This document shows positions 10,328 to 63,254 of a DNA stretch of 64,000 bases, one piece after another. A program made the translations under genes and the position numbers. Where the stretch lies: contig CAXXGI010000001.1 of assembly GCA_963674695.2 (NCBI GenBank), forward strand, positions 416,001 to 480,000. The letters are read 5' to 3'. The number at the start of each line of letters is the position of its first letter. Positions within the stretch are counted from its first letter, which is position 1. The notes under the pieces are model-generated. The model searched no databases and was not told where the DNA came from. It saw nothing but the letters and a program-made list of their open reading frames with translations. The stretch is from a bacterium (GTDB lineage: Bacteria; UBA10199; 2-02-FULL-44-16; JAAZCA01).

Positions 10328-10536
10328 CTGTCTGCCACGGCATCCTCCCCTCCGTCGCTCGAGCGCGCTCGCCTCCCTACTCGCCGTGAAAAGATCGCTG
10401 GGTTCAAAAACACGAATTGCGGATCTTCCTTCGTCAGATCGCAACTCGTGAACCCAGTCGATCTTTTCACGACTCATACGGTCGGTCTCGCAGACGCGCT
10501 TTTAGGCTCCTCCGGGAAGGATACCGTGGCAGGCAG
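10328..10536. repeat. Long imperfect palindrome, diverged copy of inner module B
   Basis: Nested stems ctgtctgccacggcatcct/aggataccgtggcaggcag, gtgaaaagatcg/cgatcttttcac, ctgggttca/tgaacccag; loop motifs shared with 23897-24109. Confidence 0.85.
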
Positions 10537-10608
10537 GAAGGCAGTCTATACGACCCTGGGCGATTATGAACCAACACCGAAAGGGGATCTCGACGTACAC
10601 TGACAATC

Positions 10609-10661
10609 GAGATTCCCGCTGGAGCCTGCCCTCGAATAATTGAATCGGGGGCGGGAATGAC
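10609..10661. repeat. REP-like GTCATTCCCGC-family arm with an expanded loop
   Basis: gagattcccgc...gcgggaatgac. Confidence 0.75.
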
Positions 10662-10688
10662 TCCTCACCAACTGACGACACGCCCTGG

Positions 10689-10952
10689 CTACCTGTAGAT
10701 TTCTCTCCGATGACCGATGTCGATGACGACGATCACGAGACGCGAGCGCCGGATTTCGTAGATAATTCGATAGGAACCCATACGGTATTTGTGAAGCCCC
10801 TTGAGTTGTCCCCGAAGGGGCGTGCCGATATCCGGATCTTCGGCAATGCGATCGATGGCACGCGCGAGGCGCTTCCCAAATGCCGGCTGGGCTTTCATAA
10901 GCGTGGCAAACGATTTCTCGGCTTGTTTGGTCAATTCAACACGATAGGACAT
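10689..10952 (-). CDS. RelE/ParE-family type II toxin
   Basis: MSYRVELTKQAEK...PLRGQLKGLHKYRMGSYRIIYEI...DIGHRREIYR. Confidence 0.92.
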   Translation of the reverse strand: MSYRVELTKQAEKSFATLMKAQPAFGKRLARAIDRIAEDPDIGTPLRGQLKGLHKYRMGSYRIIYEIRRSRLVIVVIDIGHRREIYR

Positions 10953-10963
10953 CTCAAAACTCC

Positions 10964-11233
10964 CTAGAGATGATACTTTTCTTTGATCACCTTCCAATCA
11001 ACCGTCCGTCCCGAGCGCGCTTCCGCAAACCCCTTTTTGATTCGTTTGAGGTTCTCCTTATCCTGAACTTCTTCCGCCGTATCCACGAGAGCTTCAAAAT
11101 CATCGAGGGAAAGGAGCACTGCCACCGGCCTGCCATGCTTAGAAACGATATAGCGATCCAGCTCCTCATCGACCTCGTCGATGATTCCCGACAGGTTGGG
11201 GCGCAAATCTTTGAGCGTAATGTGATTATACAT
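10964..11233 (-). CDS. Phd/YefM-family antitoxin
   Basis: ITLKDLRPNLSGIID...IVSKHGRPVAVLLSLDDFE; directly upstream of the toxin. Confidence 0.92.
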   Translation of the reverse strand: MYNHITLKDLRPNLSGIIDEVDEELDRYIVSKHGRPVAVLLSLDDFEALVDTAEEVQDKENLKRIKKGFAEARSGRTVDWKVIKEKYHL

Positions 11234-11256
11234 GATATCCTCCGGGCCTCTTCAAA

Positions 11257-11285
11257 AGAGTACACTATAGGGTACACCATGTCAA
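11257..11285 (-). promoter_or_regulatory. Sigma70-type promoter of the TA operon with GTAC operator-like palindrome
   Basis: Minus strand TTGACA-17 nt-TACTCT; near-palindrome gtaccctatagtgtac overlaps the spacer and -10. Confidence 0.7.
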
Positions 11286-11595
11286 TCATCCAATGCAGCT
11301 CCGCTCACGCTGGGATCGATAGTGCGAGGGTCTATAAGATGATGGGTCAGGTGAGCAGTGAGAGGAAAGGCAAAAAAAAGAACTCTCGCCTCACTGTCCA
11401 TACACAGATTATTCATCATAGAATATGCGTGTTGGCGAACCCTTTGGAAATTCTGAACTGCAGATGCATTTTGCAAATGTTAGAACCAAGAGGTCAATAC
11501 CGACAGACAATAATATGCAACCTTTTCAAACAAACCGACTTCTTTGACTCGATATTCATTTCTACTGTGAAAACATGTGCCATTAATTTTGTCTT

Positions 11596-11805
11596 TCATT
11601 TCGTGGCACAGCTTATATTTCTCGCATAATCTGCAATTTCGCTATCTAAATCTGCCCTTGCTTCCTCTTCGCTATCGCCCTCTCCAATCAAGAACATGTT
11701 ATTCCTACTCTCGAGACAGTCCATAAATTGAAAACGGAAGGATGTAACACAACTGCCTTGATCGTATTTTTCAATAAAAGCATTTGTATGAGCGATGTAT
11801 GACAT
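11596..11805 (-). CDS. Small hypothetical protein in AT-rich segment
   Basis: 69-aa ORF; a GGAGG with a downstream ATG suggests the start lies near 11805; GEGDSEEEARADL loosely HicB-like. Confidence 0.35.
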   Translation of the reverse strand: MSYIAHTNAFIEKYDQGSCVTSFRFQFMDCLESRNNMFLIGEGDSEEEARADLDSEIADYARNISCATK

Positions 11806-11900
11806 GGACGACCTCCGTTACGAAATCATTACGTTATCTTTCCAACAATCACTAGTGGTATCGCCCACCTCAGAAAAAAGTTGCTTGGTTCCCCCCCCCC

Positions 11901-13263
11901 CCCAAATCCGACAGTTCCAAGTTGGCATGAAATATCACGCCGTTATCCGGAAAACTTTTCAAAAAATGTCGGCCGGATTTCGTTAAAAAAAGCGGCGCGC
12001 GGAGGTGTTTTCTCCGTTTGGCCGTCGTGTGCGCCGTCTTAAGGAGCTCTCGTGCTGTATTACAAACGCACCTCGCCGGCGGTTTCTGTTTTCCTCGTCT
12101 TCGTTTCTCCCGCGTCCTTCCTGTGCCCTCATGGCATCGCCATGTCTGCGATGAGTCGTCTCGCATCCCGATAGATCGCAAACGACGGATGCCCGTGGCA
12201 GAGTTTGACGATCATCTGCCGTCCGGTCTTGATGACGCGCCCGGCGATGCAGAAGAGCCAGAGCCGCAGCTTCTTGAGTCGGCAGGTGGAGAGCTCTTCT
12301 GGCAGGGCGTGCAGTTGGAGCGCCCTCACAAGATTCTGAGCGATGCACTGGATCCGCCACCACGCGGCGTTGGCGCCGAATGCGGCGCAGGGAAGCACGC
12401 CTCCGGCGAGGTCGCTCTTGATCTGTTTGTTGACGTGCTCGATCGTCCCGCCTCGCTCGTGGTGCCACCGGATGAGGCGATCGCCCGCCCAGTCCATATT
12501 GGTGACGATGAGCTCATAGCGATCCTTGCGTGTCACTTCCTCTATGGCTTCATCCTGAATGAGCTCCCATTGCTCCCTGCGTCTTTCTGGTGACGAGATA
12601 GCGATACGTTCGCTTCCGCATATCCTCCTGTGATCCGTTTGCGCTCACCCAGTCGATCTCGGCCCACTCGCGTGCGGATTCGCTTCACGCCCTTCGGGAT
12701 CACCGAGAGACACCGCTTGAAAAACCCCAGGACGTCGTGCGCGGGGGCGACGTTTCCGTCCCGAAACTCGTCGGCGATGACGATCCCAAGCTCCGCGATC
12801 GTGCCGATGACCGATTCGAGGAGCCGCCACTCCTCCCAGCCCTTTCCCTTGAGTGTGAGCGTTCGACGCACGAATCGGGGCAGACCCAGGGCGATCATCA
12901 TCTCGTGCAGCGGAGGCAGGCCACCGAACCCGGTGAGCGTATCGTTGCGATCCATCATTTCACACTTGAACGGAAGGAGAGTTTGGCGTAGAGGTTTGGT
13001 CATTGGGAAGTTCCTTTTTCTCGTGTGGGATGGAGTCTCAAACCCTTTCTACACGAGCTTTTCCGAGAGGAAAGAGGGGCTTCCCTTTTTTTATGCGATC
13101 TCTCTCCCGCCGAAACTCCAACCATAATAATGAAGGGGATACCCACCGCCGGATGTGGACAGGGCACCTCTGGAAGGTACCCTGCCCACATCCAACCGTG
13201 GATATCCCAGCTCTATTATCATCAAGCGTCAAAAAAACCTCGTCGCCGTCAAATGAATTCAGG
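11901..13263 (-). mobile_element. IS1380-family insertion sequence, internally deleted
   Basis: Candidate ends CCTGAATTCAT (minus strand at 13263) and CCCAAATCCG (11901) resemble IS1380 IRs and enclose transposase fragments. Confidence 0.75.
12129..13003 (-). pseudogene. IS1380-family DDE transposase remnant in two fragments (13003-12542, 12536-12129)
   Basis: LTGFGGL, EFRDGN, IVTNM...HERGGTIEH.NKQIKSD, FGANAAW, LRLWLFCIAGRV; much shorter than an intact enzyme. Confidence 0.85.
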
Positions 13264-13286
13264 ATATGCGCCAAAGTGGTCGATCT

Positions 13287-13405
13287 CGACCACCACGAAC
13301 GGCCTTCGTAGCGGTCCTCGATGACCACTTTTGAGCACCGCGCCCCAAACTGGCAAAAACCGACCACCACGAACGGCCTTCGTGGCGGTCGTCGATGACC
13401 ACTTT
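13287..13405. repeat. Two 45-bp hairpin-forming direct repeats separated by 29 bp
   Basis: cgaccaccacgaacggccttcgtRgcggtcStcgatgaccacttt at 13287-13331 and 13361-13405 (2 mismatches). Confidence 0.9.
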
Positions 13406-14058
13406 GCTTCGCGGCGTGTCGTCCTGGCGAAGGATTACCCGCACCCGATTCGTTCGGCGGCAGAAGTCTCCGAATTCTGCTGTGAGCAAGGATGTCGCGA
13501 ATTTTGGTGCCGAAGCTTGGCGAAGTGACTGTCCCCTATAATCGGTCCCGATTTTCACCCTCAGGGTGAAGATCGGATCATCTTCAATGCTTCGCCTTCT
13601 CAATCCCTGCCGACATCTCCGCGCGCAATCACCGTTCTTCCTGTCGGATGGGGGATCAATGACCGATTTTTTGGAGAATCCCTTGGCATTTTTGTCCGGG
13701 ACGCAACTTTGGGGTTCGGGCGGTCGATAATACCCTTGAACCCAGGATAAATCGCTGTTTCCCAGCACAAGGAGAACCCCATTATGTCGCTGTTCGACCT
13801 CGCCCATCGCATCGGCCAAGGCCAAGCGACCCCCTTCGACGCCCAGCGCCCGAAGGAGACGTCAGCGATCTCCTCCGAGACCCAGGATCCGTGGGACGAC
13901 GTCACGCAGAAGGAGATCCTGCTCCCACGTGAGGACTCGACGCAGTATACGGCATGTTCAGGCCCGGAAAATTCCATCCCGAAATCCTCACCAAAAATTA
14001 ACAGAATCTGGAAGTAACCTCCCTTGCCATCTGATCGAGGCTGGGCTATGCCGCAGCC

Positions 14059-15219
14059 ATGATTTCCGGCATGACATACGAGGATCGCGAACGGGAGTTT
14101 CTCGCCCCCTATGCGGTCCACAGCGCACAGAGCCGCGGTAGACAGCATGCGGAAGAGGCCTGTCCGCTCCGCACCTGTTTTCAGCGCGATCGCGATCGCA
14201 TCGTCCATTCCGAGGCCTTCCGCCGACTCGAGTACAAGACCCAGGTCTTCGTCAACCACGAGGGCGACTACTATCGCACGCGGCTCACCCACACACTCGA
14301 GGTCGCCCAGATCTCGCGCGGGCTGGCGCGCACGCTGCGACTCAACGAGGACCTGGCCGAAGCGATCGCCCTGGCACATGATCTGGGCCATACGCCCTTC
14401 GGCCATCGCGGCGAGACCGCGCTCAACGACCTGATGGCAGAGCACGGCGGGTTTGAACACAATCGGCAGAGCTATCGCGTGGTCACGCTACTCGAACGAC
14501 GCTATCCGGATTTTCTGGGCTTGAATCTCTCGCTCGAGGTCCTCGACGGAATTGTCAAACACGCCACCGAATACGACGCGCCGAACCTCGACGGCATGGA
14601 GCTGGGGACCGAGCGCTTCCCCACCATGGAGGCACAGGTCGTCAATATCGCCGACGAGATCGCCTACATGAATCACGATCTCGACGACGGCCTGGAATCG
14701 GGCATGCTCATCCCGAGTGAAATCGATGCGGTCGCGCTCTGGCGCACGACCCATGGGGCAGCGCTCAAAGACCACCCCAACGCATCGCCCCGAATGGCCA
14801 AATATCAGACGATCCGCCGCCTCATCCACCTGCTCGTCTCGGACCTCGCGGAGGCGACCAAGAGCCGCATCGACACGATGAACCTGTCCTCATTGGATGA
14901 AGTCGTCCAATGCCCGAATCAGATCGTGGCCTTCAGCGAAGAGATCACCGCGCAGGCCAAGGAGCTCAAGGATTTCCTCTTCTCCCATCTCTATCGACAC
15001 TACCGCGTGGAACGCATGGCCGACAAATCGACGCGCATCTTGAACGCCCTCTTTGAAACGTATCTCAATAACCCGAAGGTATTGCCGCCCGCGCTCGAAG
15101 CGACCATTCGCACCGAGGGGCACGCCCACCGCCGCATCTGCGACTATATGGCGGGCATGACCGATCGGTATGCCCTGGGAGAATACGCAAAACTGTTCGA
15201 TCCGAATGCAACGGTTTGA
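14059..15219 (+). CDS. dgt: Deoxyguanosinetriphosphate triphosphohydrolase (HD family)
   Basis: FQRDRDRIVHSEAFRRLEYKTQVF, RTRLTHTLEV, HDLGHTPFGH.GE, DYMAGMTD. Confidence 0.95.
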   Translation: MISGMTYEDREREFLAPYAVHSAQSRGRQHAEEACPLRTCFQRDRDRIVHSEAFRRLEYKTQVFVNHEGDYYRTRLTHTLEVAQISRGLARTLRLNEDLAEAIALAHDLGHTPFGHRGETALNDLMAEHGGFEHNRQSYRVVTLLERRYPDFLGLNLSLEVLDGIVKHATEYDAPNLDGMELGTERFPTMEAQVVNIADEIAYMNHDLDDGLESGMLIPSEIDAVALWRTTHGAALKDHPNASPRMAKYQTIRRLIHLLVSDLAEATKSRIDTMNLSSLDEVVQCPNQIVAFSEEITAQAKELKDFLFSHLYRHYRVERMADKSTRILNALFETYLNNPKVLPPALEATIRTEGHAHRRICDYMAGMTDRYALGEYAKLFDPNATV

Positions 15220-15236
15220 GGAAAGGTTTCCGAATA

Positions 15237-16373
15237 ATGACCAGCGATCAGAGTCCCTCACATCCCCTGGCGTTTGTCGTTCGGGCCTTCGGTTTTATCG
15301 TATTGCTCTTTTTCTTCCTCGTCGCCATCAGCCTCCTGGGAGGATCCTTCAAGCTCCTGGGCAAAGGCGTCGCCGAATCGCTCATCACGACGACCGCAAA
15401 TCCCTTCGCGGGGCTGCTCATCGGCATCCTCTCTACCGCCATCGTCCAGAGCTCATCGGTGACCACCTCCATGGTCGTGGCCCTCGTCTCCGGCGGAGCG
15501 CTCTCGGTGCAGAGCGCGGTGCCCATCGTCATGGGTGCCAACATCGGCACCACGATCACCTGCGCGCTGGTCTCGGTCGGGCACATCACGCGCAACGATG
15601 AATTCGAACGCGCCTATGCCGGTGCCAACGTCCACGATATCTTCAACATCATGAGCGTGATCGTCATCCTTCCCTTGCAGCTGGCCACGGGCTTCCTCAA
15701 CAAAGCCGCCTCCGTGATGGCTGGCTTCTTCTACGGAATGGAATCGAGCACATTCTCCAGCCCCATCAAGGTGGCCGTCAAACCGATCGTGAAGGCCGTT
15801 CATCACTTTTTTCTCGATACGATGGCCCTGTCCGACAAAACGACCGGCATTCTTTCCATCATCCTGGCCGCACTCCTGATCTTCCTGACGCTCTCGTTCA
15901 TGGTCAAGGCGATGCGCGCGATCACCGCATCACGCCTGGAGCACTGGATTCAGCGCATCTTCTCAGCAAATATCTACATCATCTTTGCCATCGGCATCGT
16001 CATCACCGCTATCATCCAGTCGAGCTCGATCACGACCTCGATCATGGTACCGATGGTCGGCGCAGGATTGGTCACCATCGAACAGGCCTTCCCGATCACC
16101 GTCGGCGCCAACATCGGAACGACTGTCACCGCCATCCTGGCGGCGCTCGCCGGCAATCAGGCGGGGCTCACGATCGCGTTTGTCCACCTCATCTTCAACC
16201 TCTGCGGCACGCTCCTCTTCTTCGTCCCCCCCTGGACGCGCCGCATTCCAGTAGCCATTTCGAAGTGGTTGGCCTCTATATTCGTTCGAAATAAAAAGCT
16301 TGTGGTGATCTACATCGCTATGCTTTTCTTTGTCCTCCCGCTGATCGGCATGTACATCAGCAGCAAATGGTAA
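15237..16373 (+). CDS. Na/Pi cotransporter family protein
   Basis: Duplicated QSSS...GANIGTT motifs, multiple TM segments. Confidence 0.93.
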   Translation: MTSDQSPSHPLAFVVRAFGFIVLLFFFLVAISLLGGSFKLLGKGVAESLITTTANPFAGLLIGILSTAIVQSSSVTTSMVVALVSGGALSVQSAVPIVMGANIGTTITCALVSVGHITRNDEFERAYAGANVHDIFNIMSVIVILPLQLATGFLNKAASVMAGFFYGMESSTFSSPIKVAVKPIVKAVHHFFLDTMALSDKTTGILSIILAALLIFLTLSFMVKAMRAITASRLEHWIQRIFSANIYIIFAIGIVITAIIQSSSITTSIMVPMVGAGLVTIEQAFPITVGANIGTTVTAILAALAGNQAGLTIAFVHLIFNLCGTLLFFVPPWTRRIPVAISKWLASIFVRNKKLVVIYIAMLFFVLPLIGMYISSKW

Positions 16374-16389
16374 CGAAAGGAGACCGACC

Positions 16390-17064
16390 ATGGTCCTGAA
16401 AGAACTCTTGAGCCTCTGGCACGACGATTCTGCGCTGGATGAAACCTTTCGGCGCTTCGATGAAATGATCATATCCGCGAAGGAGATGTTTTCGCTTTCG
16501 ACAACATTCCTCATCAGCGATGACAACCCGGACGGAACGGGAAAACAGTTGAGCAAGATGGATGGAAAGCTCAACACCCTGCAGCAGGTCATTCGCCGCG
16601 ACATCATCACGCATATCTCCGTACAGGGAACGGGCGATATGGTCCCCAGCCTGATGCTCACCAGCATCATCAAGGACGCCGAACGCATCGGCGATTACTG
16701 CAAGAACATCCATGAAGTGGCGCGAAAGGCATCATACATCAACACCGATCCACTCTTCCCGGATCTCGTCGAAATGCGCGCCAAGATCCTCATCTGGTTC
16801 GACCAGACCAAACGCTCTTTTGACCGCCAGGATCGAGAGCTCGCGGAGAATACGCGCGAAGAGGCCTACCTCCATGAAAAGAGCTGCGACCGCCTCCTGT
16901 GGGACCTGGCCTCCGATAACAAGGGCCGCAATGCCGTCGCCGCCGCCCTGATGTTGCGTTTCTTCAAGCGCGTTGCCGCCCACCTGGGCAACATCTGTTC
17001 GAGCGTCGTCCAGCCGCTGGACAAGATCGATTATTACGATCTCTCCGAGAAAGAAGAAGCCTAA
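16390..17064 (+). CDS. PhoU-domain protein
   Basis: KDAERIGDYCKNI and KRVAAHLGNI repeats; follows the Na/Pi transporter. Confidence 0.85.
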   Translation: MVLKELLSLWHDDSALDETFRRFDEMIISAKEMFSLSTTFLISDDNPDGTGKQLSKMDGKLNTLQQVIRRDIITHISVQGTGDMVPSLMLTSIIKDAERIGDYCKNIHEVARKASYINTDPLFPDLVEMRAKILIWFDQTKRSFDRQDRELAENTREEAYLHEKSCDRLLWDLASDNKGRNAVAAALMLRFFKRVAAHLGNICSSVVQPLDKIDYYDLSEKEEA

Positions 17065-17176
17065 TCGAGAACGACGAACGCCCATGATCTGCCGCGTCAT
17101 TTTCTATTGCGCGCCGCATATTGTACGCTTTCCTCCCCCGTCTATGATCAGCCCACGTGAAATGGGAGGGACTATC

Positions 17177-17851
17177 GTGAAGCCATCGGCACATCGGTCA
17201 CATTATCTCCGTTTCCTCAGCATCCTGCTGCTCTGCGTCTGCGCCTGGCTCTCTCTGCTGGGAACGCGCCCCGCATCTGCCGCTGAGAACAACGAACGCC
17301 GCTTCGACGTCACCATGCGCCTGGGCGCCCAATTCGTCACCCTGCCGGATGCCCCCTTCTTCTGGGCCGAGGGTCGCGATAGCATCACCGTCCAAGGTCG
17401 CCATGAGGGCGCGGTCATTCCAGGCGAATCGATCCCGCGCATGGTCTTTCAAGCTAAACACCCCCCCCTCGACCTCAAGGCGCTGACCGTCGTCATCGAA
17501 GGCATCCCCGGCACCTGGATTCAGATCGACTGGGCCGACTATCCGACCATCCGCCTCACAGAGGTCGACCTTCGCGTGCAGGCCTTCGACGTCCCCAAGA
17601 ATGAACTCATGCCCGCGACGCAACCGATCCTCGATATCGTCCTATCCAACATCTCGCTCTCCACCGAACCCATCGATGTGGAGGGGGTGACCAGTGCCGG
17701 CTATGTCGATGCGATGAAACTCGAGGTCCAGGTCGTAGGCGAGGCCCTCCTCCCCGAAGACCCCCACCCGCTCTACACCGAATGGCTCGCAAACGAACCG
17801 ATCCTCCTCGAACTCATCGTCCGCGCCCACAACCCCTTCAGCAAGAAGTAG
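17177..17851 (+). CDS. Hypothetical exported protein
   Basis: GTG start after GGAGGG, signal peptide ending ASA-AE, genome-like codon usage. Confidence 0.6.
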   Translation: MKPSAHRSHYLRFLSILLLCVCAWLSLLGTRPASAAENNERRFDVTMRLGAQFVTLPDAPFFWAEGRDSITVQGRHEGAVIPGESIPRMVFQAKHPPLDLKALTVVIEGIPGTWIQIDWADYPTIRLTEVDLRVQAFDVPKNELMPATQPILDIVLSNISLSTEPIDVEGVTSAGYVDAMKLEVQVVGEALLPEDPHPLYTEWLANEPILLELIVRAHNPFSKK

Positions 17852-17892
17852 CCCAACCAGAGACAATCAAAGAAGAGCACAGAGCACACATC

Positions 17893-18254
17893 GTCCGGCA
17901 GTGTGTTTGTAGGGTTATCATGATCCAACCGGGTGAAATGCCTTGCATGTGCGCCCTACTTCCGCACCGCGAGCCGGACCCTTCCCGGAGGAGTATAAAG
18001 GCGCGTTTGCGAGACGAGCGTATCCCGAAGCAATAAAATCCGTTTGGCTTCACGACATTGAGAGCCGACGGAGGAGGATCCTCAATGTCGATGAAGACAA
18101 CGGATTTTTTGCGAGGGGTAGCGAGCGAAGCGCGCCCTCACGACGAAGGGAAGGGTCCGGCTCGCGGTGCGGAAAGAGCGAAGCGGAAGCGCACATGCAA
18201 GGCATTTCACCCGGTTGGATCATCCGGCGGTCCCCGCAAAACACACTGCCGGAC
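17893..18254. repeat. 362-bp nested palindrome: outer arms A enclosing inner module B
   Basis: gtccggcagtgtgttt/aaacacactgccggac; atgatccaaccgggtgaaatgccttgcatgtgcgc with its exact complement; 27-bp perfect inner stem 17960-17986/18148-18174. Confidence 0.95.
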
Positions 18255-18309
18255 TGACGCGCTCATTTGTTCCAATATACAGGATGTAGATTGCTGTGCG
18301 AATGATGAA

Positions 18310-20571
18310 TCAGTTCTTTGCCGTGGGCGGTGAAGCGATGGGAATTGGTGGGTAGAGGCGTTGCATGGTCCAGAGGCTTGCCAGGACCTTCTTCACGTAG
18401 AGGTTGGTCTCGCTGTAGGGGATCTCTTCGATCCATTCTTCGATGTCGTTCATTTCCCCATTGCCGAGCCAGCGCCCGACGGCCTCTTCGCCGGCGTTGT
18501 AGGACGCGATGTGCGCGACGGGGTTTCCGGGAAAGAGTCCGGACAGTTTTTCGAGATACTGCGCACCGAACCCGATGTTGACCGCCGGGCGATAGAGCAT
18601 GCGCCGATCGACCATGCCTTCACCGACATCGCTCGCCAAGCGATTGGCGGTCGTCGGCATCAGCTGCATCAGCCCCACCGCTCCTGCGGGAGAGACGACC
18701 CACGGACGAAAGGTCGACTCGTTGCGCATGATCGCCCAGATGAGCATCGGATCGACCGTACACTCGCGCGCGAGCGCCCCTACGATCGGACGATAGGCCT
18801 CGGGATAAGCGGCCTGCCAGACGAAGCGATCGAAACCCTTCCCTTTCGGAATTCCCCGCTTGAGCGTTCCGCGATGACGGCGCACCGAAAGGCGGTAGGC
18901 AAGGTTGTGCGCGAAGTTGCGTGATGCCAGCCACATCACCTCGTCTGCGAGTTCGGGATACCGCTTGAGATCGACGACGCGGAGTTCACGCGCAGCCTCC
19001 TCATGGAGCCCAAGGCCATCATAGAATCGCGCGCGCGCCATATGGATCGATTCGGTCTCGGCCGTCTCGTCCGGCGCCCACTGACTGTCCTGGCCCCCCA
19101 TCCAAGAGACGCGCGCAAACTGCTCGGTGGTCAAACGCTTCCCGGCAAGGCGTCGGCGCGCGATCTCTCCGTAATAGCCCTTCGGATATTTGCGGCGCAC
19201 CTCGGTATAGACCGCCCGCGCCTGTTCGCGACGGCCCGCTTTTTCGAGGGCCCGCCCCTTCCAGTAGAGGACGCGATCAGCGATGCGAATGCGTTTTGCC
19301 GCACCCCCGAGCAATCCATCAAAGACAGCGATCGCATCGTCAGATTGGCCGCGCATATACTCGCACCACCCCATATGCCAACGCGCGAGCGTCTTGGTCT
19401 TGCTCCCTCCATGCATCTCGGCCACGTGTCGAAAATGCGGAATCGCCTCCGCATACTTTCCCTCATCCATATAGAGGTACGCGATCTTGTACGCGATATT
19501 GGCAGCGCGACGCGAACGCGGATTCTCGCGGGCGAGCATCCGCTTGCGCATTGCAATCGCTTTTTCGTAGTCGTCCTTCTTCGCATAGGTCGTGGCGAGT
19601 GTGGCCGAGACCCCGCCGACGTATCCTCGGGCACGTGGATCGGCCAGCAGCTCCTGCATAAGCGCGATGGCCTCGTCATAGCGATGTGTCCAGCGGTAAC
19701 ACCGCGCGAGCAACCAGCGTGCGCGCACCTCGTTCTCGGAGCCCAACCCCTCGCGTTCGAGCAACGCCTTCAGGCGAACAGCCGCCTCGTCCCACTGCGA
19801 ACGATCGACGAACGACTGGGCCAAGCGATATTGTTGTTGGGGATGGTCCAGCCACTTGCGAACATCGACGCCAAAACGCCGACGCACATCCCCGATGAGG
19901 GAGGAGAGATCGCGAAGCTCTTCCTCGCTGCCCGCATTGACCGCCAGCGCCTTCACCCGCGCCACGGCCGTCTCCGCCTGACCGGATTCAATCGCCAGCT
20001 CGGCGTTGACGCGATCGATGCGCGCCTGCCTCTCGATCGAGAGATGCTTCTCGCGCGAAAGAACTCGCAGCGCTTCGCTCGCCTCACGAAATCGCCGCAT
20101 GCCGACGAGCGCACGCACGCGTTCGAATTCGGCATCACGCGCCCAAACGCTTTCGGGAAAACGATCCTTCAGAAGGTCGAGAAAGGTGAGCGCCTGCGGA
20201 AAATGCCCGAGTTCGATCGCCGCGACACCGCGCTCATAGAACACTGTGTCCTCCACGAGGGGAAGCGCATCGGCCACCTTGGCGAGAAAGGTCTCGGCCT
20301 CCTTCCACCGCCTCTTTTGAAAATGGGCATACCCGAGGACAAAATCCCACTCCGGAACGGAATACTGCTTCGCACGGACGGCAAAATCGGAGAGTCCCTG
20401 CACGACCTCGTCGAGGGATAAGGCTGTAGCCTGCACCGAACGGCGAGGTGCGGTCTCGGCAACCTGCGCCTGCGCCGCAGAAGCGCGGCCCGCACACCCG
20501 GTCGCGGCGAAGACAACGATCGTACCGATGAAACAGATGGCAATGTTCACGACACGCATGGGAGATAACAT
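18310..20571 (-). CDS. Soluble lytic transglycosylase with TPR repeats
   Basis: AIMRNESTF, SPAGAVGLMQLMP, ASYNAG, IPYSETNLYVKKV; N-terminal TPR helices; possible lipobox TGC. Confidence 0.92.
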   Translation of the reverse strand: MLSPMRVVNIAICFIGTIVVFAATGCAGRASAAQAQVAETAPRRSVQATALSLDEVVQGLSDFAVRAKQYSVPEWDFVLGYAHFQKRRWKEAETFLAKVADALPLVEDTVFYERGVAAIELGHFPQALTFLDLLKDRFPESVWARDAEFERVRALVGMRRFREASEALRVLSREKHLSIERQARIDRVNAELAIESGQAETAVARVKALAVNAGSEEELRDLSSLIGDVRRRFGVDVRKWLDHPQQQYRLAQSFVDRSQWDEAAVRLKALLEREGLGSENEVRARWLLARCYRWTHRYDEAIALMQELLADPRARGYVGGVSATLATTYAKKDDYEKAIAMRKRMLARENPRSRRAANIAYKIAYLYMDEGKYAEAIPHFRHVAEMHGGSKTKTLARWHMGWCEYMRGQSDDAIAVFDGLLGGAAKRIRIADRVLYWKGRALEKAGRREQARAVYTEVRRKYPKGYYGEIARRRLAGKRLTTEQFARVSWMGGQDSQWAPDETAETESIHMARARFYDGLGLHEEAARELRVVDLKRYPELADEVMWLASRNFAHNLAYRLSVRRHRGTLKRGIPKGKGFDRFVWQAAYPEAYRPIVGALARECTVDPMLIWAIMRNESTFRPWVVSPAGAVGLMQLMPTTANRLASDVGEGMVDRRMLYRPAVNIGFGAQYLEKLSGLFPGNPVAHIASYNAGEEAVGRWLGNGEMNDIEEWIEEIPYSETNLYVKKVLASLWTMQRLYPPIPIASPPTAKN

Positions 20572-20598
20572 TTTCTTGAGACGAACTGTTCAATAGTT

Positions 20599-20667
20599 GT
20601 CATTCCCGCGAAGGCGGGAATCTCGAAGTGGGTGAAAAATCGAGATTCCCGCCTTCGCGGGAATGAC
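20599..20667. repeat. REP-like inverted doublet, GTCATTCCCGC family
   Basis: gtcattcccgcgaaggcgggaatctcga...tcgagattcccgccttcgcgggaatgac, perfect arms. Confidence 0.95.
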
Positions 20668-20714
20668 AGCAAAAAGCCCTCTTCCCTCTAAGCGATTATC
20701 ACCCGTCACGGCTC

Positions 20715-23700
20715 TTAAAACGCCGCGCCCAACGTCAGGATGAAGATACCGTCCTTGATGCTCTGACCGAAGATCGGGTCGGTGAGCGCCGCGACGCGAC
20801 CGCGGTTGAGGACGATGATGGCATAGCCGATGCGACCGTGGATGGGAAGGCCATGGCCGACGATGAAGTTCCCGCGCAGCTCGGCGCCGACGCCGAGCAG
20901 AAATTCGTCGAAGAAGGTGTTCAAGGAATCGCAGCCACCCTCATGCGCATTCCAGGCGTTGCCGTAATCGGCAAAGACCGCCGCGCTGATGTCCTTCAAG
21001 AAGAACGGCGCGGTGCCGAGACCGAATTGCGGCTCGACGAGCGGAAAGCGATACTCGCCCGAGAAGAGCATGGCACGTGTCCGCGAGAGCGCTGATACCG
21101 GAAGGCCGCGCAGGGGAAAGTAATTGTAGGTTCCGCCGCCGCCGAAGTTCCCCTCGCCGAGCGCACCACCCATACCGAAGGTTCCCTGCACGAGTCGATC
21201 GCCCCAGGTCATACCGCCGGCAGCGCGAAGGGCAAAGACCGTCATCCAGGGGAGTTTGATGAATTCGCGCCAGTCGCCGGAGAAGATCACCTGCTCGTTG
21301 CGATCGCCGGAACCAAAGTATTTATTCTGGACGATCGTCGTGAGCCGAATATCGCGCCCGTTCTCGCGGCTGATCGACGCGGGATACCGCTCGGTGTCGC
21401 GATAGTTGTACTTGAAACGAAGACCGGCGAAGTGACCGAGGTTGAGCACCGCTCGCTCCGCCGCCGTGAGCTTGGTCTTCGGCATGTGGTCTTCGAAGAA
21501 GTAGGCGACCTGGAAGCCGTGACTCCCCCAGGGGACACCCACCGAGGCCGCGACCGCGCGACGTTTTTCATAGAAGTGAACGGTGCGCGAGAGCGTCGGG
21601 GTCACAGAATTGACAAACGAGATCATACCGAAATCGACGGCGTAGTCGGCCAGAATCACGCTGAAGACCGGCCGATACCGGCTGTACCAGTATTGCAAGC
21701 TGTAGCCGAGATGCCGCGCATCGACGCGATAGTTGAGCGAGGCCAGCCAGTTGTGCCAACGCAGCACATCCGCACCGCCGGTCATGATCGAAGCGAAGAC
21801 CGTGTCACTCGTATAGGCGACGTTGGGCAGAACAAAGCGCGGAAGGAAGAGCGACTGCCCGAAGGCGACGTACTTCTCGACCGGATACTTCTTGAATCCC
21901 GTCGCTCCGAGCGAGGCCGTGCCGATTCCTGCCGGATCGGGGACGCCCTTTCCGCCCCCCGTCGGGCGACTGTCGTCGCCGAGCTGAAAGTGCTTCGGAT
22001 AGGTACTGCCGGAGCCACCGTAGAGACCGAGGCCCGCATCGCCGACCGCCTTGCCCTTGCATCGCTCAAGATCATGATCGGCCGGGCGCACCCAGGTCCC
22101 AAAGCGCGCGATGACGAGACCATCCGGGGTATAGTATTCGCCCACAATCCCCGCGCCGACGGCCGTCGTCGGCTGGAAGGCACCGCTCACGACGTTCGTG
22201 ATACGGCAGGGCTTGCGCTCGCCGTGCGCGGAGACGCGATAGAAGTTGGAGATCCCCGTCTCGTCCGAGGAGTAGATGACGTCATTGCCATCCGGCGCCC
22301 AGACCGGATGGGCCTCGATGACGAGCCCGCGCGTCTTCGTCAACCGAACGGGATTGGTGCCATCGATATTGAGGCGGTAGATGCGCCAACCGTGGTCCGG
22401 CTGCCACATGGAAACGACGATGAAGCGTCCGCAGGGAGAGACGCGCGGATTAGCAAACTGCGTATGCGGCGCCACGTTCGGCGTGAGCAGGGTCACATCG
22501 CGCGTCTTGACATCGATGCGATTCAGGGTGTCGGTACTGCCATCCCCCTTCACGAAGATGAGGTTCTTCCCATCCGGCGTAAAATCCGGATCGCGCGCGC
22601 GCTGCCCAACGGTGAGGCGCCGAAAACGCTGCTTACGCTTTTTCGCATCGCGGTCATAGATCCAGAGGTCGTAGAACTTATAATAGCGTTTATACCCGCC
22701 CATCTTGGAGTAGGCGATTGTGCGCCCATCCGGACTGAAGGAGAACTGGTTCGCCGCAACCTTCTTCTTGATGCGTTCATCCTCGCCCGTCTCGATATTG
22801 TAGAGGTGCATCTCCGGCGGACCGAAGGGCGATGTCTGCGTATAGACGAGCTCGCGTCCATCGCGCGAGAGCGTCGGCGACCAATACCGCCGCTGCTCCT
22901 TCACCGGCACGAGCGTCTCAGCGGGGGTAACGCCCTCGGCGGTGAGCGCCGCATCGACAGCGGCAAACCGTTTCAGGAGGTGCCGCTTCCACTCCATCCA
23001 GAGTTCGTAGAAGGTCTTGCCGTAGACCTGGCGCGCCTGATGATTGATCATGGCCAGCATGATCGAGCGACGCACGCGCCCATCGAACTCCATGAAGCGA
23101 TCTTCGCCATAGGTGCTGATCAACCACTCGACGAATTCGATGCCATAGAGGTAGGCCGCGGCGTATCCGGGCCATTTCCAACTCAGGCCGTCGGCGAAAC
23201 TGATCGGGGGAAAACTATCCGAGAGGATCGCGGTGCGAATGGCCATCTCGCTGTAGGAGCCGCGCCCGCGCCCGCCCTTGGTGAAGACCGTCTCATCCCA
23301 CTGGGCGATTCCCTCGCGCAACCAGGTCGGGCTGATCCCGGAAGGGCTCACGGTCTTACCCAGGAGCACGCGCACCGGCCACCAGATGCCACCGAAGGCG
23401 TCGATCTGGACGATGTGCGTAAATTCGTGGACGAGCAACATCCGCAGCCAGTCATCATAGTGCGCCAGCGACGAATCGGGACTGGGCGGTACGGTATAGA
23501 TGATCATCCAGTTATACGGGAGCACGGCCGCCATGCCGTTGGAATCGTCGGTGCGATCGGTCAGGACCACCTCGGTGTAGCTCCAGGGCTTGCGCCCCCA
23601 CTTCTCAGTAACCAGGGGGAAGACCTCTTCGAGGATGTTGGCGGATTTCTGGGCGATAGGCTCAATCCGCTCGGGAAAGCGGATGCGAAAGTGCGGCGTC

Positions 23701-23837
23701 TTGATCGTCTTCCAATCGACCGACGGATCGAACGACGCCGCGCGCACCGGCGCCGCGGCCAGAAGCACCGCAACCACCGAAAAAACAAGCAGAAATGTCC
23801 GGAGCAACCCCCGAGCGCAATGCCACATAGCGCGCAT
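20715..23837 (-). CDS. Omp85/BamA-TamA-type barrel with N-terminal zincin-like domain and TolB-like beta-propeller
   Basis: HEFTH + WLREGIA, repeated SPDG/TPDG blades, FPLRG, EYRFPL, FADYGNAW, terminal Phe. Confidence 0.85.
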   Translation of the reverse strand: MRAMWHCARGLLRTFLLVFSVVAVLLAAAPVRAASFDPSVDWKTIKTPHFRIRFPERIEPIAQKSANILEEVFPLVTEKWGRKPWSYTEVVLTDRTDDSNGMAAVLPYNWMIIYTVPPSPDSSLAHYDDWLRMLLVHEFTHIVQIDAFGGIWWPVRVLLGKTVSPSGISPTWLREGIAQWDETVFTKGGRGRGSYSEMAIRTAILSDSFPPISFADGLSWKWPGYAAAYLYGIEFVEWLISTYGEDRFMEFDGRVRRSIMLAMINHQARQVYGKTFYELWMEWKRHLLKRFAAVDAALTAEGVTPAETLVPVKEQRRYWSPTLSRDGRELVYTQTSPFGPPEMHLYNIETGEDERIKKKVAANQFSFSPDGRTIAYSKMGGYKRYYKFYDLWIYDRDAKKRKQRFRRLTVGQRARDPDFTPDGKNLIFVKGDGSTDTLNRIDVKTRDVTLLTPNVAPHTQFANPRVSPCGRFIVVSMWQPDHGWRIYRLNIDGTNPVRLTKTRGLVIEAHPVWAPDGNDVIYSSDETGISNFYRVSAHGERKPCRITNVVSGAFQPTTAVGAGIVGEYYTPDGLVIARFGTWVRPADHDLERCKGKAVGDAGLGLYGGSGSTYPKHFQLGDDSRPTGGGKGVPDPAGIGTASLGATGFKKYPVEKYVAFGQSLFLPRFVLPNVAYTSDTVFASIMTGGADVLRWHNWLASLNYRVDARHLGYSLQYWYSRYRPVFSVILADYAVDFGMISFVNSVTPTLSRTVHFYEKRRAVAASVGVPWGSHGFQVAYFFEDHMPKTKLTAAERAVLNLGHFAGLRFKYNYRDTERYPASISRENGRDIRLTTIVQNKYFGSGDRNEQVIFSGDWREFIKLPWMTVFALRAAGGMTWGDRLVQGTFGMGGALGEGNFGGGGTYNYFPLRGLPVSALSRTRAMLFSGEYRFPLVEPQFGLGTAPFFLKDISAAVFADYGNAWNAHEGGCDSLNTFFDEFLLGVGAELRGNFIVGHGLPIHGRIGYAIIVLNRGRVAALTDPIFGQSIKDGIFILTLGAAF

Positions 23838-23896
23838 AAACTATCGGAATTCATCACGAATCACAACTTCTTTTGTGTGGCAAGGCAGACGCCCCT

Positions 23897-24180
23897 TCGT
23901 CACTGCGCTGAAGCATCCTTCCCTTCGTCGTAGGGCGCGCTTCGCTCGCTACCCCTTGCACACAATCCGTTGTCTTCATCGGTATTGAGGATCCTCCTCC
24001 GTCGGCTCTCAATACCGTGAAGCCAATCGGATTTTGTGCTTCGGGATACGCTCGTCTCGCAAACGCGCCTTTATACTCCTCCGGGAAGGATGCTTCAGCG
24101 CAGTGACGACGAGAGATCCCCTCCAAACACACTGTCGGACTTTTATCTCACCACTCGGCCTTCCCGACGACGTGTTTTTC
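23897..24180. repeat. Module B (inverted relative to the 17960 copy) followed by the right end and tail of arm A
   Basis: 27-bp perfect stem tcgtcactgcgctgaagcatccttccc with its complement; core is nearly the reverse complement of 17980-18153. Confidence 0.95.
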
Positions 24181-24182
24181 GA

Positions 24183-24875
24183 TTATTCTTTCATCGCCCA
24201 TCGGGCGGTGGCTTTGGCGTGGATGCGCGTCGTGTCGAAGAGCGGGATCGAGACGTGTTGTTGTTGGATGAGGAGCGGAATTTCGGTGCACCCGAGGATG
24301 AGCCCTTCGGCGCCGCGCCCGACCAGGCCTTCGATGATGTGCATGAATGAATCGCGCGAACGCTCGACGATTCTGCCGTGCACGAGTTCCTCGAAGATCA
24401 CCTTGTGGACGAACTGTCGTTCCTCCTCCTCGGGGATCATGATTTCAATGCCGTGCGATTGCATGGACTCCTGATAGAATCCATCCTCCATCGTGAAGGC
24501 GGTCCCCAGGAGGGCAATCCGTTTGAGCTTCTGCTTCGTAATCGCCGCAGCGGTCGCCTCGACGATATGCAGGAGGGAAATGTCGACCGCATCTTCAACC
24601 GTTCGCGCCACTTTGTGCAGGCTGTTCGAACCGATCACGAGGAGATCGGCCCCGCCCGCTTCCAGCCGCTTCGCCTCGACGATCAACTGACGCGCAATCT
24701 CGTCCCAATTTCCCGCCACCGCCAGCGCCACCAACGGATCGAAGTCGACGCTCGACAGCAGCAGGGGCGCCGAATGATGGCCGCCTTTCACTTCGGCGAC
24801 GACTTCATTGATGATGCGATAATAATCGATCGTCGACTGCCAACCCACTCCACCGATCATGCCGATCCGTTTCAT
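24183..24875 (-). CDS. Aspartate/glutamate racemase family protein (RacX/YgeA-like)
   Basis: IGMIGGVGWQSTIDYY, LLGTAFTM, ILGCTEIPLL, FDTT.IHA. Confidence 0.92.
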   Translation of the reverse strand: MKRIGMIGGVGWQSTIDYYRIINEVVAEVKGGHHSAPLLLSSVDFDPLVALAVAGNWDEIARQLIVEAKRLEAGGADLLVIGSNSLHKVARTVEDAVDISLLHIVEATAAAITKQKLKRIALLGTAFTMEDGFYQESMQSHGIEIMIPEEEERQFVHKVIFEELVHGRIVERSRDSFMHIIEGLVGRGAEGLILGCTEIPLLIQQQHVSIPLFDTTRIHAKATARWAMKE

Positions 24876-24902
24876 ATCGCCTCCCCTCTCGAAGACATCA
24901 TC

Positions 24903-25247
24903 CGGCAGTGTGAGCGGAGGGGATATCTTCTGATCATGATCCAACCGGGTAAAATATTTTGTATGTGCGCCTCGTGGAGAGAACCGTTTTGGCCTGCGAA
25001 GACCCGCTGGTTGAGATCGGAGATCTCAATTCCGAGTGCTGTCTGAGCCCGCCAAAAATATGATGCGCTCTTATTCCGCTGGCGGGCGAGTTCACGAGGA
25101 AAAGCGGGTCGAGTCAGATGCCAAAACGTGTGAACGGAGCGGAAGCGCACATACAAGATATTTTACCCGGTTGGATCATGACATCCCCTCCAAACACACT
25201 GCCGAACTTTTGTCTCACCACTCGGCCTTACCGACGACGTGTTTTTC
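24903..25247. repeat. Outer arms A enclosing a different branched inner module C, plus tail
   Basis: cggcagtgtg...atgatccaaccgggtaaaatattttgtatgtgcgc / gcgcacatacaagatattttacccggttggatcat...cacactgccg. Confidence 0.95.
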
Positions 25248-25289
25248 AATCACCTCTCCATCGCCACATCGTTCCACGAGGAGGACTTC

Positions 25290-39688: not shown

Positions 39689-39715
39689 TCACTCTTGAAA
39701 CCTGGTTTTTCGCCT

Positions 39716-39829
39716 GTCATCCCCGCCTGCCCGCCTCCGGCGGGAGTGATTCTATCGGGGATCCAGTCCCGGAAAGTCGTACAACAAAGGCATCTGCCTG
39801 GATTCCCGCCTACCCCATGCGGGAATGAC
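39716..39829. repeat. REP-like doublet (GTCATYCCCGC family) with insertions
   Basis: gtcatccccgc...ggggatccag...ctggattcccgc...gcgggaatgac. Confidence 0.8.
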
Positions 39830-39904
39830 AAAAACAAAAAACAGGTTTCTAGAGATACCCCACAGACGCTTCTCGGTTCTTGATCTTTGGTCCATGGTCT
39901 ATGG

Positions 39905-45939: not shown

Positions 45940-45948
45940 TCCCGATCT

Positions 45949-46042
45949 GTCATTCCCGCGCAGGCAGCCTGCCCGCCGGTTGTGTGGCGGGGGAATCTCG
46001 CTTTTCATGACAAATCGGGATCCCCGTTTTCACGGGGATGAC
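45949..46042. repeat. REP-like doublet with nested 25-nt insert
   Basis: gtcattcccgcgcaggc[agcctgcccgccggttgtgtggcgg]gggaatctcg...cggggatgac. Confidence 0.9.
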
Positions 46043-46066
46043 ACAACCAAGGTTTTTCAGCCGTCT

Positions 46067-63243: not shown

Positions 63244-63254
63244 ACCAGTTTTTT

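Follow-up and report, generated by a model that had tools for sequence, protein, structure and literature searches.

BIMEs and BOX elements are mosaics in which a few repeat modules are arranged combinatorially in gene spacers, and attC sites conserve structure and unpaired bases but not stem sequence. MITEs such as Correia, ERIC and RUP are, like the elements described here, non-coding, multi-copy, foldable and inserted in or next to each other. REP and REPIN sequences are extragenic, multi-copy hairpins with long vertical persistence, and compensatory changes that keep the hairpin are described for REPINs in PMC3116915. According to the account in PMC8266576, TnpAREP acts on single-stranded REP DNA, recognizes one strand only and requires bulges, and the REP GTAG tetranucleotide sits at the 5' foot of the hairpin. 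The elements described here were found in a 64,000-nucleotide stretch (the window) of the 3.03-Mb genome of an uncultured bacterium (G000). Their closest resemblance is to mobile REP hairpins known from other bacteria, and they matched no described family. With REPs and REPINs they share multi-copy extragenic hairpins, compensatory change, long persistence and the presence of RAYT-like genes, one of which is flanked by its own REP doublets (family P), and recognition of one folded strand through its bulges is proposed for families B and C by analogy. These two families differ from REPs in being multi-loop or branched units of 170-250 nt, compared with 20-40 nt, and in being conserved inside and variable outside, the reverse of REPINs; in addition, none of the RAYT-like genes has B or C on its flanks. 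A (G/A)TAG word in B recalls the REP tetranucleotide, with its position in an internal loop and not at the hairpin foot. As in BIMEs and BOX, few modules are combined in gene spacers, but here they are nested up to three or four deep in each other's hairpin loops, whereas BIME modules lie side by side.

All four intergenic elements of the preliminary description (E1 to E4) were located and are copies of genome-wide repeat families. A genome-wide BLAST search returned 44 regions with these modules. Family B gave 20 nhmmer hits in G000, which resolve into 11 full-length copies and about six interrupted or partial loci, and family C gave 17 hits and has 12 full copies and three interrupted or partial ones. 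Family D had 33 BLAST matches and family R had 86, both strands counted. At least six repeat families are present (B, C, D, F, R and P are named here), and all repeats together occupy 527 regions and 80,314 bp. Subfamilies are genome-specific, with 83-92% identity within G000. Of the 93 class genomes searched with a covariance model, 33 contained B, which establishes its class-wide conservation. The preliminary description had recognized no named family, and Rfam 15 agreed: the whole window had 0 hits at gathering thresholds, positions 23850-25300 had no match in E-value mode, and E1 in that mode matched only sub-threshold miRNA-hairpin models (69.8 bits against 200; 34.5 against 75). The features of the window are as follows.

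10328..10546, plus strand: E4, a B-family copy of subfamily B2 (nhmmer E 6e-60; covariance model E 5e-42), with closing stem CTGTCTGCCACGGCATCC/GGATACCGTGGCAGGCAG and 3' tail GAAGGCAGTC
10578..10665: partial copy of family R (high-copy, REP-like), GTCATTCCCGC...GCGGGAATGAC
13273..13405: doublet of family P (REP-like), ACCACCACGAACGGCCTTCGTGG
17893..17919: outermost left arm of E1, family D type, TCCGGCAGTGTGTTTG
17920..17959: left C-type arm of E1, the inner part of the formerly named 'arm A'
17960..18174, minus strand: core B of E1, subfamily B1, with its own 27-bp closing stem (the top strand of the B model is the minus strand of the window)
18175..18223: right C-type arm of E1, including the C right-end remnant GAGCGAAGCGGAA
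18224..18255: outermost right arm of E1, family D type, CAAAACACACTGCCGGA (D match at C1:434225-434254)
20598..20668: full palindromic copy of family R, arms of 29 nt, 100% complementary
23897..24109, plus strand: E3, a B1 copy with a perfect 27-bp closing stem that differs from that of E1
24113..24198, plus strand: D-variant tail of E3, first copy of an 86-nt direct repeat
24183..24944, minus strand: Asp/Glu racemase gene between E3 and E2 (PF01177, E 3e-42)
24901..24933: outermost left arm of E2, D type, CCGGCAGTGTG..GGAGGGGAT
24934..24973: left arm of the C element of E2
24974..25141, plus strand: core C of E2, a branched fold with two inner hairpins
25142..25181: right arm of the C element of E2
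25180..25265, plus strand: D-variant tail, second copy of the 86-nt direct repeat

A complementarity check bore out the stems quoted earlier. The closing stems of E1 (17960-17986/18148-18174) and E3 (23897-23923/24083-24109) are each 27 nt and 100% complementary, with unlike sequences, and arm A is 35 nt and 100% complementary in E1 (17920-17954/18189-18223) and 40 nt and 95% complementary in E2 (24934-24973/25142-25181). The B cores of E1 and E3 are reverse complements of each other over 104 nt at 92% and 58 nt at 97%. The two copies of the direct repeat, which bracket the racemase gene, are 86% identical. Nesting of shared parts stood as proposed, with the additional families D, F, R and P now added to the module list, but 'arm A' did not hold as a single module: its outer part is family D, and the inner part belongs exclusively to C-type elements as their basal stem. 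The terminal ~14 nt of the right end of C (GAGCGAAGCGGAA) persist in E1, which is therefore a core B inside a C-type shell.

In each family a long stem closes off a core that is conserved and multi-looped. Across 34 B copies from 10 genomes, 92.3% of cells were paired, compared with 74.9% in shuffled controls (0/500 reached the observed value) and 33-44% when partners were slid, and 32 of 37 pairs were altered on both sides. The corresponding values for 11 C copies were 93.4%, 79.9% (0/500) and 30-42%, with double changes at 43 of 84 pairs. Covariation, as claimed in the preliminary description, was thus above both controls in both families. The stems keep their pairing (~95%) while their identity between copies is at the random level. 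The B closing stem is present in 34/34 copies, with 687 of 725 aligned positions complementary and an arm identity between copies of 0.48 (0.49 random), compared with 0.68 for the core. In any one C copy, 28-33 of the 33 arm positions are paired, and the mean arm identity between copies is 0.56 versus 0.53 ± 0.06 for random sequence and 0.83 for the core. The asymmetric internal loops of B are its most conserved, near-invariant parts; loops are ~90% fixed across genera, the unpaired motifs recur in E4 and in copies of other genera, and the B bottom strand carries a nearly invariant (G/A)TAGCGAG. The C fold is branched and unlike a simple foldback. The anatomy of B and C is a conserved core with fixed unpaired motifs and a basal stem that matters for pairing, not sequence.

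Inspection of the sequences by eye showed that modules interrupt each other at unpaired positions. Family F lies at a bulge and an internal loop inside the B copies c703 and c264, and family D takes the place of the B core within a B2 shell at C1:804240-804480 and C3:196640-196930. Three related composites (E1, c729 and c591) have B between arms of C type, and in E1 and E2 arms of C type are enclosed by D arms. No target-site duplication was visible by eye at the flanks of 11 B and 12 C copies. Excision or empty-site polymorphism of the elements was not seen in short-read contigs, which break at repeats. Core C is the site-specific target of an IS110-family insertion sequence (PF01548 and PF02371), which interrupts it at C1:838732-840330 and C3:391862-393460. 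The two insertions are 97.7% identical over 1608 nt, their host C copies have different arms, and a 3-nt GAG is present at both junctions (equivalent to 25088-25090 in E2); c385, an uninterrupted duplicate C copy, serves as the empty site. Because the same base of C was hit in two independent copies, C is a landing pad and not a derivative of this element, whose own 14-bp ends (ATATGGATGCCCAG) are unlike those of B and C. The IS110-family element was considered as the parent of C and ruled out, since it interrupts C at a fixed base. REPs are likewise targets of IS110-family elements (IS621, ISPpu9 and ISPpu10), including in Pseudomonas, with the difference that C is a 170-nt branched element and not a short REP. 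A GC-rich stem-loop immediately precedes the insertion site in C on its 5' side, an arrangement also described for ISPpu10 targets (10.64898/2026.03.19.712850, 10.1101/2025.01.17.633520). The 195-nt 3' non-coding end of the element, a candidate bridge RNA, has six 6-mer matches, with ~2 expected by chance on a rough estimate. Self-BLAST and module BLAST revealed no autonomous element with B or C termini in G000, and the earlier statement that the window holds no mobilizer was confirmed.

Wobble pairs distinguish the two strands, although the structure-prediction procedure skews these counts towards the folded strand. The C top strand has 42 G.T versus 18 A.C, and the bottom strand's own fold has 19 versus 28. 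The B bottom-strand fold has 116 versus 46 overall and ~66 versus 16 in the core helices (tallied from the per-pair table); the B top-strand structure has similar numbers of G.T (23) and A.C (27) with one fixed pair set aside. The predicted folding energy of B is -47.7 kcal/mol for the bottom strand and -33.6 kcal/mol for the top. The asymmetry shows only that one strand matters and would suit RNA equally. B has no orientation bias relative to neighboring genes (6/12 copies between co-directional genes) and no conserved promoter-like flank outside its closing stem, and on these grounds we lean towards DNA over a structured RNA. C is opposite to its neighboring genes in 9 of 11 co-directional contexts. 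A lagging-strand template bias, as exhibited by IS200/IS605-derived elements of the PATE type, was not found: the B top strand is on the G-rich strand in 11/17 cases (p = 0.33) and that of C in 8/15. E1 is flanked by convergent genes, and no T run follows the stems of E1-E4.

Comparison of filled and empty sites among relatives demonstrated that occupancy of the spacer downstream of queE varies. E4 lies directly downstream of the queE-like gene in G000; syntenic B copies are present in G010 and, inverted, in G008, and G013 has a B-like element. D-like elements were recognized by eye in G001 and G005, a short plain hairpin is in G003, and the spacer is empty in G007 and G015; two congeneric genomes differ in whether an element is present. 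The queE spacer is a recurrently occupied hotspot. At this site the closing stem in G010 extends, by eye, 8 nt deeper into the conserved flank than in its congener G001. For 4 of 23 B loci in relatives the flanking genes map within ~1.5 kb of a G000 B copy, three of the four adjoining one and the same neighboring gene, and the E4 and G010 cores agree in 180 of 290 aligned columns, a conservation equal to that of neighboring proteins. These data fit a host-selected function as well as a hotspot. Most copies are solitary and adjoin housekeeping genes. Copies are also located at the borders of accessory genes. The racemase gene was absent from all eight same-family relatives searched and is accessory; its paralogue at C1:117796-118521 has two in-frame TGA codons. 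Three same-orientation C copies separate single accessory genes in a defense island (C1:108-119 kb), and in G003 a restriction-modification pair and a Bro-N gene lie between B copies paired in inverted orientation.

G000 encodes four RAYT-like tyrosine transposases, whose best NCBIfam match, REP-associated tyrosine transposase, scored 56.9 and 76.6 bits, below the 80-bit cut-off of that model. A copy flanking a RAYT gene had been suggested as a place to look, and none of the four genes is flanked by B, C or D. The gene at C3:157556-158281 has family P doublets on both sides, and the three conserved paralogues have no flanking hairpins and no repeat within 1.2 kb. Among 41 genomes a conserved paralogue and B are both present in 16, the paralogue alone in 5, B alone in 6 and neither in 14 (Fisher p = 0.005, for an E-value threshold of 1e-50 set after the data were seen and with related, non-independent genomes).

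We tentatively assign the elements to the REP/REPIN/BIME kind of mobile DNA, as several non-autonomous families that form hairpins, and the mechanism we favor, with similar reserve, is that REPIN-like hairpin DNA is handled as single strands by the RAYT-like tyrosine transposases of the genome. The unit would act as a folded single DNA strand, recognized through its loops and bulges by an HUH/Y1 enzyme, for which the RAYT-like proteins are candidates, and would be cut and rejoined without target duplication. New copies may prefer the exposed single-stranded loops of existing hairpins, either other elements or terminator-like stems, and such a preference would build nested structures. Stem pairing would be kept by selection on the fold, to which arm-from-arm copying in replication (template switching in quasi-palindromes) may add. 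Against this proposal stand the RAYT-like genes without flanking B, C or D, the lack of lagging-strand bias and of visible excision in contigs that break at repeats, unit sizes and branched cores far beyond classical REPs, the syntenic fraction of B loci with cores as conserved as neighboring proteins, and the wobble asymmetry, which fits RNA equally. That last point is shared by a less likely alternative in which B, and perhaps C, are class-wide structured non-coding RNA genes that gained copies as passengers of mobile DNA. Proteins or other RNAs would then bind the conserved loops, for instance the apical loop rich in CCUCC, and the basal stem would be a helix for processing or stability. 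Strong covariation with near-invariant internal loops, detection in a third of the class (33/93), copies syntenic across genera, the better folding of one strand with G.U above A.C, and the branched C fold all agree with RNA, but the indifference of B to gene orientation, the lack of a promoter candidate, the balanced wobble counts of the B top-strand structure, perfect stems of 25-35 bp, which are unusual in stable bacterial RNAs, interruption and truncation in the manner of mobile DNA, and the empty Rfam search do not.

Three further explanations are each improbable. Folded single-strand recombination sites of the attC type, marking the ends of cassettes shuffled by a site-specific recombinase, would account for fixed unpaired bases in conserved structures beside accessory genes, the C copies of the defense island, the direct repeats around the racemase gene, the G003 pairs and the antisense orientation of C; however, by eye only two of the 11 C copies (E2 and c72) have fitting R''/R' boxes (RYYYAAC...GTTRRRY), no integron integrase was seen alongside, none of the five tyrosine recombinase genes (PF00589) lies beside a C or B array, the G003 pairs are in inverted and not direct orientation, and the majority of copies stand alone beside housekeeping genes. 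It is similarly doubtful that the elements are ordinary double-strand MITEs or foldback elements moved by DDE enzymes, with arms kept perfect by template switching or mismatch repair and no selection on the fold. Arm-to-arm copying would explain near-perfect stems despite saturated divergence, and the longer G010 stem suggests arm growth of this kind, but copying cannot maintain the asymmetric internal loops, the most conserved parts; the sequence of the terminal repeats is not conserved, target duplications are not visible, and there is no parent insertion sequence, since the one nearby has other ends and interrupts C. Nor do we expect immobile host elements, either cruciform sites for nucleoid proteins or gyrase or bidirectional terminators, that multiplied long ago and are now host-selected. 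Class-wide conservation, partial synteny, indifference to transcription and replication direction and the convergent genes around E1 agree with a host role, but the subfamilies are genome-specific and closely similar within G000, copies are interrupted, truncated and nested, occupancy of the queE site differs within a genus, and the stems lack a T run.

A minority possibility is that B and C represent an undescribed class of element, a class-wide fold of 170-250 nt whose loops are fixed and whose basal stem evolves freely in sequence but stays perfectly paired. They would then be either a new non-coding RNA family or folded single-stranded DNA sites of a new recombination system, and that system would place elements and gene cassettes in hairpin loops and leave no target duplication. 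The separation of loops, which are what is read, from stems, which only pair, makes the families a natural experiment on the recognition and upkeep of hairpin repeats, and four RAYT-like enzymes with at least six repeat families in one small genome form a test bed for matching enzymes to repeats. The elements probably shape the entry points of new DNA, because they lie at the edges of accessory genes and provide the landing pad of an IS110-family recombinase. The repeats also break the short-read assemblies of this lineage.

The modular palindromes reported in the preliminary description are confirmed and extended. All four elements are present in the window, and their sequences read as described.

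17893-18255, E1: B core inside C-type arms and outer D arms
24901-25265 region, E2: C core inside C arms and outer D arms
23897-24109, E3: copy of hairpin family B
10328-10546, E4: copy of hairpin family B

A repeat search recovered two different 27-nt closing stems for core B, each 100% complementary, and the pairing of the outer arms termed A in E1 (35 nt, 100%) and E2 (40 nt, 95%). Sharing of core B also holds, with the B core of E1 being the reverse complement of that in E3. An 86-nt direct repeat lies at 24113-24198 and 25180-25265. Arm A had been proposed as a module; it is shared by E1 and E2, but its outer 16-25 nt belong to a separate family, D, and its inner part is the arms of family C. 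Every C copy has its own 33-35 nt arms, and one related arm pair is common to E1 and E2. From the outside in, E2 consists of D arms, C arms and core C, and E1 consists of D arms, C-type arms and B and retains the final ~14 nt at the right end of C. A single B-in-C composite gave rise to E1 and to two B copies elsewhere in the genome (c729 and c591). A short reading frame in B (SD-like GGAGGAGG, then ATG) was dismissed by eye, as its frame in E1 and that in E3 are offset by an indel.

BLAST of the modules against the source genome (G000; 3,033,874 bp in three contigs, C1-C3, 58.6% G+C) located 44 regions that carry them. The window spans C1:416001-480000 of this genome. A profile search gave 20 B hits. 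Of the copies read from them, 11 are full length, 2 are split by another element and 4 are partial or have an internal deletion. The full-length copies divide into subfamilies B1 (E1, E3, c729, c591 and a further copy, c786) and B2 (E4 and five others). The 17 BLAST hits to C are read as 12 full copies, 2 interrupted copies and 1 half copy. Four more repeat families accompany B and C.

D: ~145 nt, 33 matches in G000
F: 78-nt core, 3 copies in G000
R: REP-like palindrome, at least 86 matches with both strands counted, 40 of 242 candidates scored
P: REP-like doublet

Self-comparison of the genome yielded 527 repeat regions totaling 80,314 bp, and 361 of the 527 join one network because composites are so many among the loci. 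Copies of the R palindrome (TGTCATTCCCGCGAAGGCGGGAATC...) occur in the window at 20598-20668, 45947-46069, 47323-47505 and 63252-63308, and variants at these positions have a small inner hairpin with an extra insert, AGCCTGCCCGCCGGTTGTGTGGCGGG, which is nesting at a smaller scale. Multicopy palindromes of other families lie at 58091-58172 (self-BLAST depth 16) and 39711-39860 (depth 8). Separate ~1-kb repeats (C3:18335-19410, with copies at C3:635203-636205, C3:6645-7550 and C2:896580-897506) are themselves 700-bp palindromes, and each is a divergent gene pair encoding 23S rRNA-intervening-sequence (four-helix bundle) proteins (PF05635, E 1.6e-19).

The stems keep their pairing and not their sequence. 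The two arms within a C copy match at 28-33 of 33 positions, and the mean arm identity between copies is 0.56 versus 0.53 ± 0.06 for random 33-mers run through the same aligner; C cores are 0.83 identical. The B closing stem is present in 34 of 34 aligned copies with 687 of 725 positions complementary, and B arm identity between copies is 0.48 versus 0.49 for random sequence and 0.68 for the core. Inside both cores the loops are fixed and the stems covary. The C fold is branched rather than a plain foldback, with two further stems within the arms around two separate hairpins. In B, 92.3% of cells pair versus 74.9% in shuffled alignments (0 of 500 reach 92.3%), pairing falls to 33-44% with partner columns slid by 1-3 positions, and two-sided changes occur in 32 of 37 pairs. 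In C, 93.4% of cells pair versus 79.9% shuffled (0 of 500) and 30-42% slid, with two-sided changes in 43 of 84 pairs and in 30 of 32 arm pairs. Because all C copies are from a single genome and every set includes related copies, the shuffle figures are not probabilities. Pairing thus stands above both controls, which bears out the proposal that it is maintained through changes in stem sequence.

Wobble pairs were used to compare the strands. The predicted top-strand structure of B contains 40 G·T pairs (23 without one fixed pair) and 27 A·C pairs. The bottom strand has the lower fold energy (-47.7 versus -33.6 kcal/mol), and its fold contains 116 G·U versus 46 A·C pairs overall and ~66 versus ~16 in the core helices by our own tally from the per-pair table. 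The corresponding counts for C are 42 versus 18 on the top strand and 19 versus 28 in the bottom strand's own fold. These counts, which are biased toward the strand that was folded and drawn from related copies, suggest that one strand may be the active one, whether as RNA or for single-strand DNA enzymes. DNA is preferred over RNA as the acting form because B has no gene-orientation bias, nothing is conserved outside the stems and the elements behave as mobile DNA. B shows no preference in its orientation to genes: according to crude gene calls, the model top strand runs along the genes in 6 of 12 copies between codirectional genes. In codirectional contexts C runs against the genes in 9 of 11 cases, one duplicated pair included (8 of 10 gives p = 0.11). 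No conserved sequence was found outside the stems.

Family C serves as a landing pad for an IS110-family element. A 1432-bp insert that splits two C copies encodes a 390-aa protein with PF01548 and PF02371, and G000 has only two genes of this type, both outside the window.

C1:838786-840217: IS110-family insertion sequence, 390-aa DEDD transposase
C3:391958-393406: IS110-family insertion sequence, 390-aa DEDD transposase

The two insertions share 97.7% identity over 1608 nt. Their host C copies differ in the arms but are interrupted at one and the same position, and GAG stands on both sides. The insertion point is directly 3′ of a GC-rich hairpin (CCCGCC...GGCGGG) and corresponds to 25088-25090 in E2. 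The element carries 14-bp inverted ends of its own, and its 3′ end is noncoding for 195 nt. An uninterrupted site is present in c385, a C copy that is a segmental duplicate of one of the two hosts. An origin of C as a deletion derivative of the IS110-family element is ruled out by the element's own inverted ends and the single-point interruption. These ends, insertion at the same site in different C copies and the empty site in c385 therefore identify C as the target of the element and not its remnant. A stem-loop requirement is reported for ISPpu10 targets (10.64898/2026.03.19.712850), and the GC-rich hairpin beside the C insertion site recalls it. A search for bridge-RNA complementarity returned six-mers only, at about three times a rough chance estimate.

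The elements appear to work most like REP/REPIN/BIME hairpin repeats, a mechanism that we infer. They fail the RAYT test for REPINs: the preliminary description proposed to look for a copy beside a RAYT gene, and no B, C or D copy flanks any of the four RAYT-like genes of G000, one of which is flanked by P. They differ from DDE-type MITEs in having neither a target duplication nor a parent element. Identity with attC is disfavored because the boxes fit only 2 of 11 C copies. Membership failed for all Rfam families; across the window there were no hits at gathering thresholds, in agreement with the earlier failure to recognize a named family, and E-value mode returned only subthreshold miRNA-hairpin models. 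Searching the plasmid collection with E1 and the phage collection with E2 returned no match. Literature searches on nested or compensatory MITEs and on Geobacter multicopy sequences uncovered no account of elements like these, which does not prove that they are unpublished.

The four RAYT-like genes are those with PF01797, a domain found in at least two genes in each of 12 family relatives. The best NCBIfam match for two of the G000 genes is REP-associated tyrosine transposase, below its cut-off. One gene (C3:157556-158281) has P doublets on both sides (C3:157360-157500 and 158290-158440), which is the classical REP-RAYT arrangement. A P doublet is found in the window as well (13273-13405), bordering a 3.5-kb stretch of genes without Pfam matches. 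The other three genes are paralogues 85-89% identical and lack flanking repeats. This paralogue is 65-74% identical across the order. It occurs together with B in 16 of 41 genomes and without B in 5; B is found without the paralogue in 6 genomes, and 14 have neither (Fisher p = 0.005, a figure inflated by kinship and obtained with a presence cut-off of E ≤ 1e-50 chosen after the table was seen). Within the family these counts are 11, 0, 0 and 2.

BLAST detected B in 10 of 41 relatives' genomes, G000 included; hits to C were confined to G000 apart from one weak hit. The class was also searched with a covariance model based on 34 B copies. Of 93 genomes, 33 were positive, each with between 1 and 25 matches and together with several hundred; among them are 10 of the 12 remaining members of the G000 family and all 4 from a second family. 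Stricter filters applied in this search, and some matches span the central hairpin only. The exact B loop-motif pattern was found in 17 stretches of genome contigs and 19 of metagenome contigs, nearly all from MAGs of this lineage; compared with the covariance model, exact patterns badly undercount B.

At 4 of 23 B loci in relatives the flanking genes map within ~1.5 kb of a G000 B copy, three beside the same neighboring gene and the fourth across a gene pair. The spacer downstream of queE was compared among relatives.

G000, G010 and G008: B, inverted in G008
G013: diverged B-like element
G001 and G005: D-like elements (by eye)
G003: short hairpin only
G007 and G015: no spacer

G010 and G001, from one genus, have the ~16 nt directly behind the stop codon and the outer portion of a stem in common, with different elements inside the shared stem. 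E4 and the G010 copy have a common core and unrelated closing stems. One reading of this spacer is repeated colonization via the loop of a pre-existing hairpin; prolonged retention in which the interior was replaced would explain the pattern equally well. Nesting occurs at other loci as well. F, which itself carries two different arm sets, splits one B copy (c703) where a bulge separates two stems and another (c264) within the conserved internal loop, and at two loci D plus short linkers stands in place of the whole B core inside a retained B2 shell (all by eye). A center-deleted B copy (c954) is closed by a perfect stem of still another sequence. Among the 17 B loci, 9 have D within 700 bp, as do 5 of the 15 C loci. 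Construction of new arms from the target flank at each insertion was rejected as a general rule, as B2 copies share arms and related C-arm pairs exist. No target duplications were seen in the flanks of B and C copies. Contigs assembled from three DNA runs end at repeats and contain no empty sites or excision joints; the listed joints connect different repeat copies.

GC skew stays negative throughout C1, becomes positive near C2:45 kb and returns to negative values at C3:450-650 kb. The origin is accordingly put near C2:45 kb and the terminus within C3:450-650 kb, and the pattern fits one circular chromosome split into three contigs. B (11 of 17) and C (8 of 15) have no orientation bias to replication.

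Several copies adjoin accessory genes. In G003, inverted B pairs at two loci bracket 2.5 kb of cargo and look like composite mobile units.

G003:C11, 1498-4277 (L040): inverted B pair around a C-5 cytosine methylase and a 284-aa neighbor
G003:C31, 1497-4385 (L041): inverted B pair around Bro-N domain genes

Three C copies in G000 stand between single genes of an island that encodes a Fic protein, a type I restriction system and a toxin-antitoxin-like pair (named by eye from translations). The 3.5 kb of genes without Pfam matches between E4 and an HD-domain gene (window 10650-14020) looks like an inserted islet because its two neighbors, the queE-side B copy and the HD-domain gene, are directly adjacent in G010. 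The racemase gene between E3 and E2 (24183-24944) was found in 0 of 8 same-family relatives. Its paralogue at C1:117796-118521 is 56% identical, has two in-frame TGA codons and adjoins the defense island with the three C copies.
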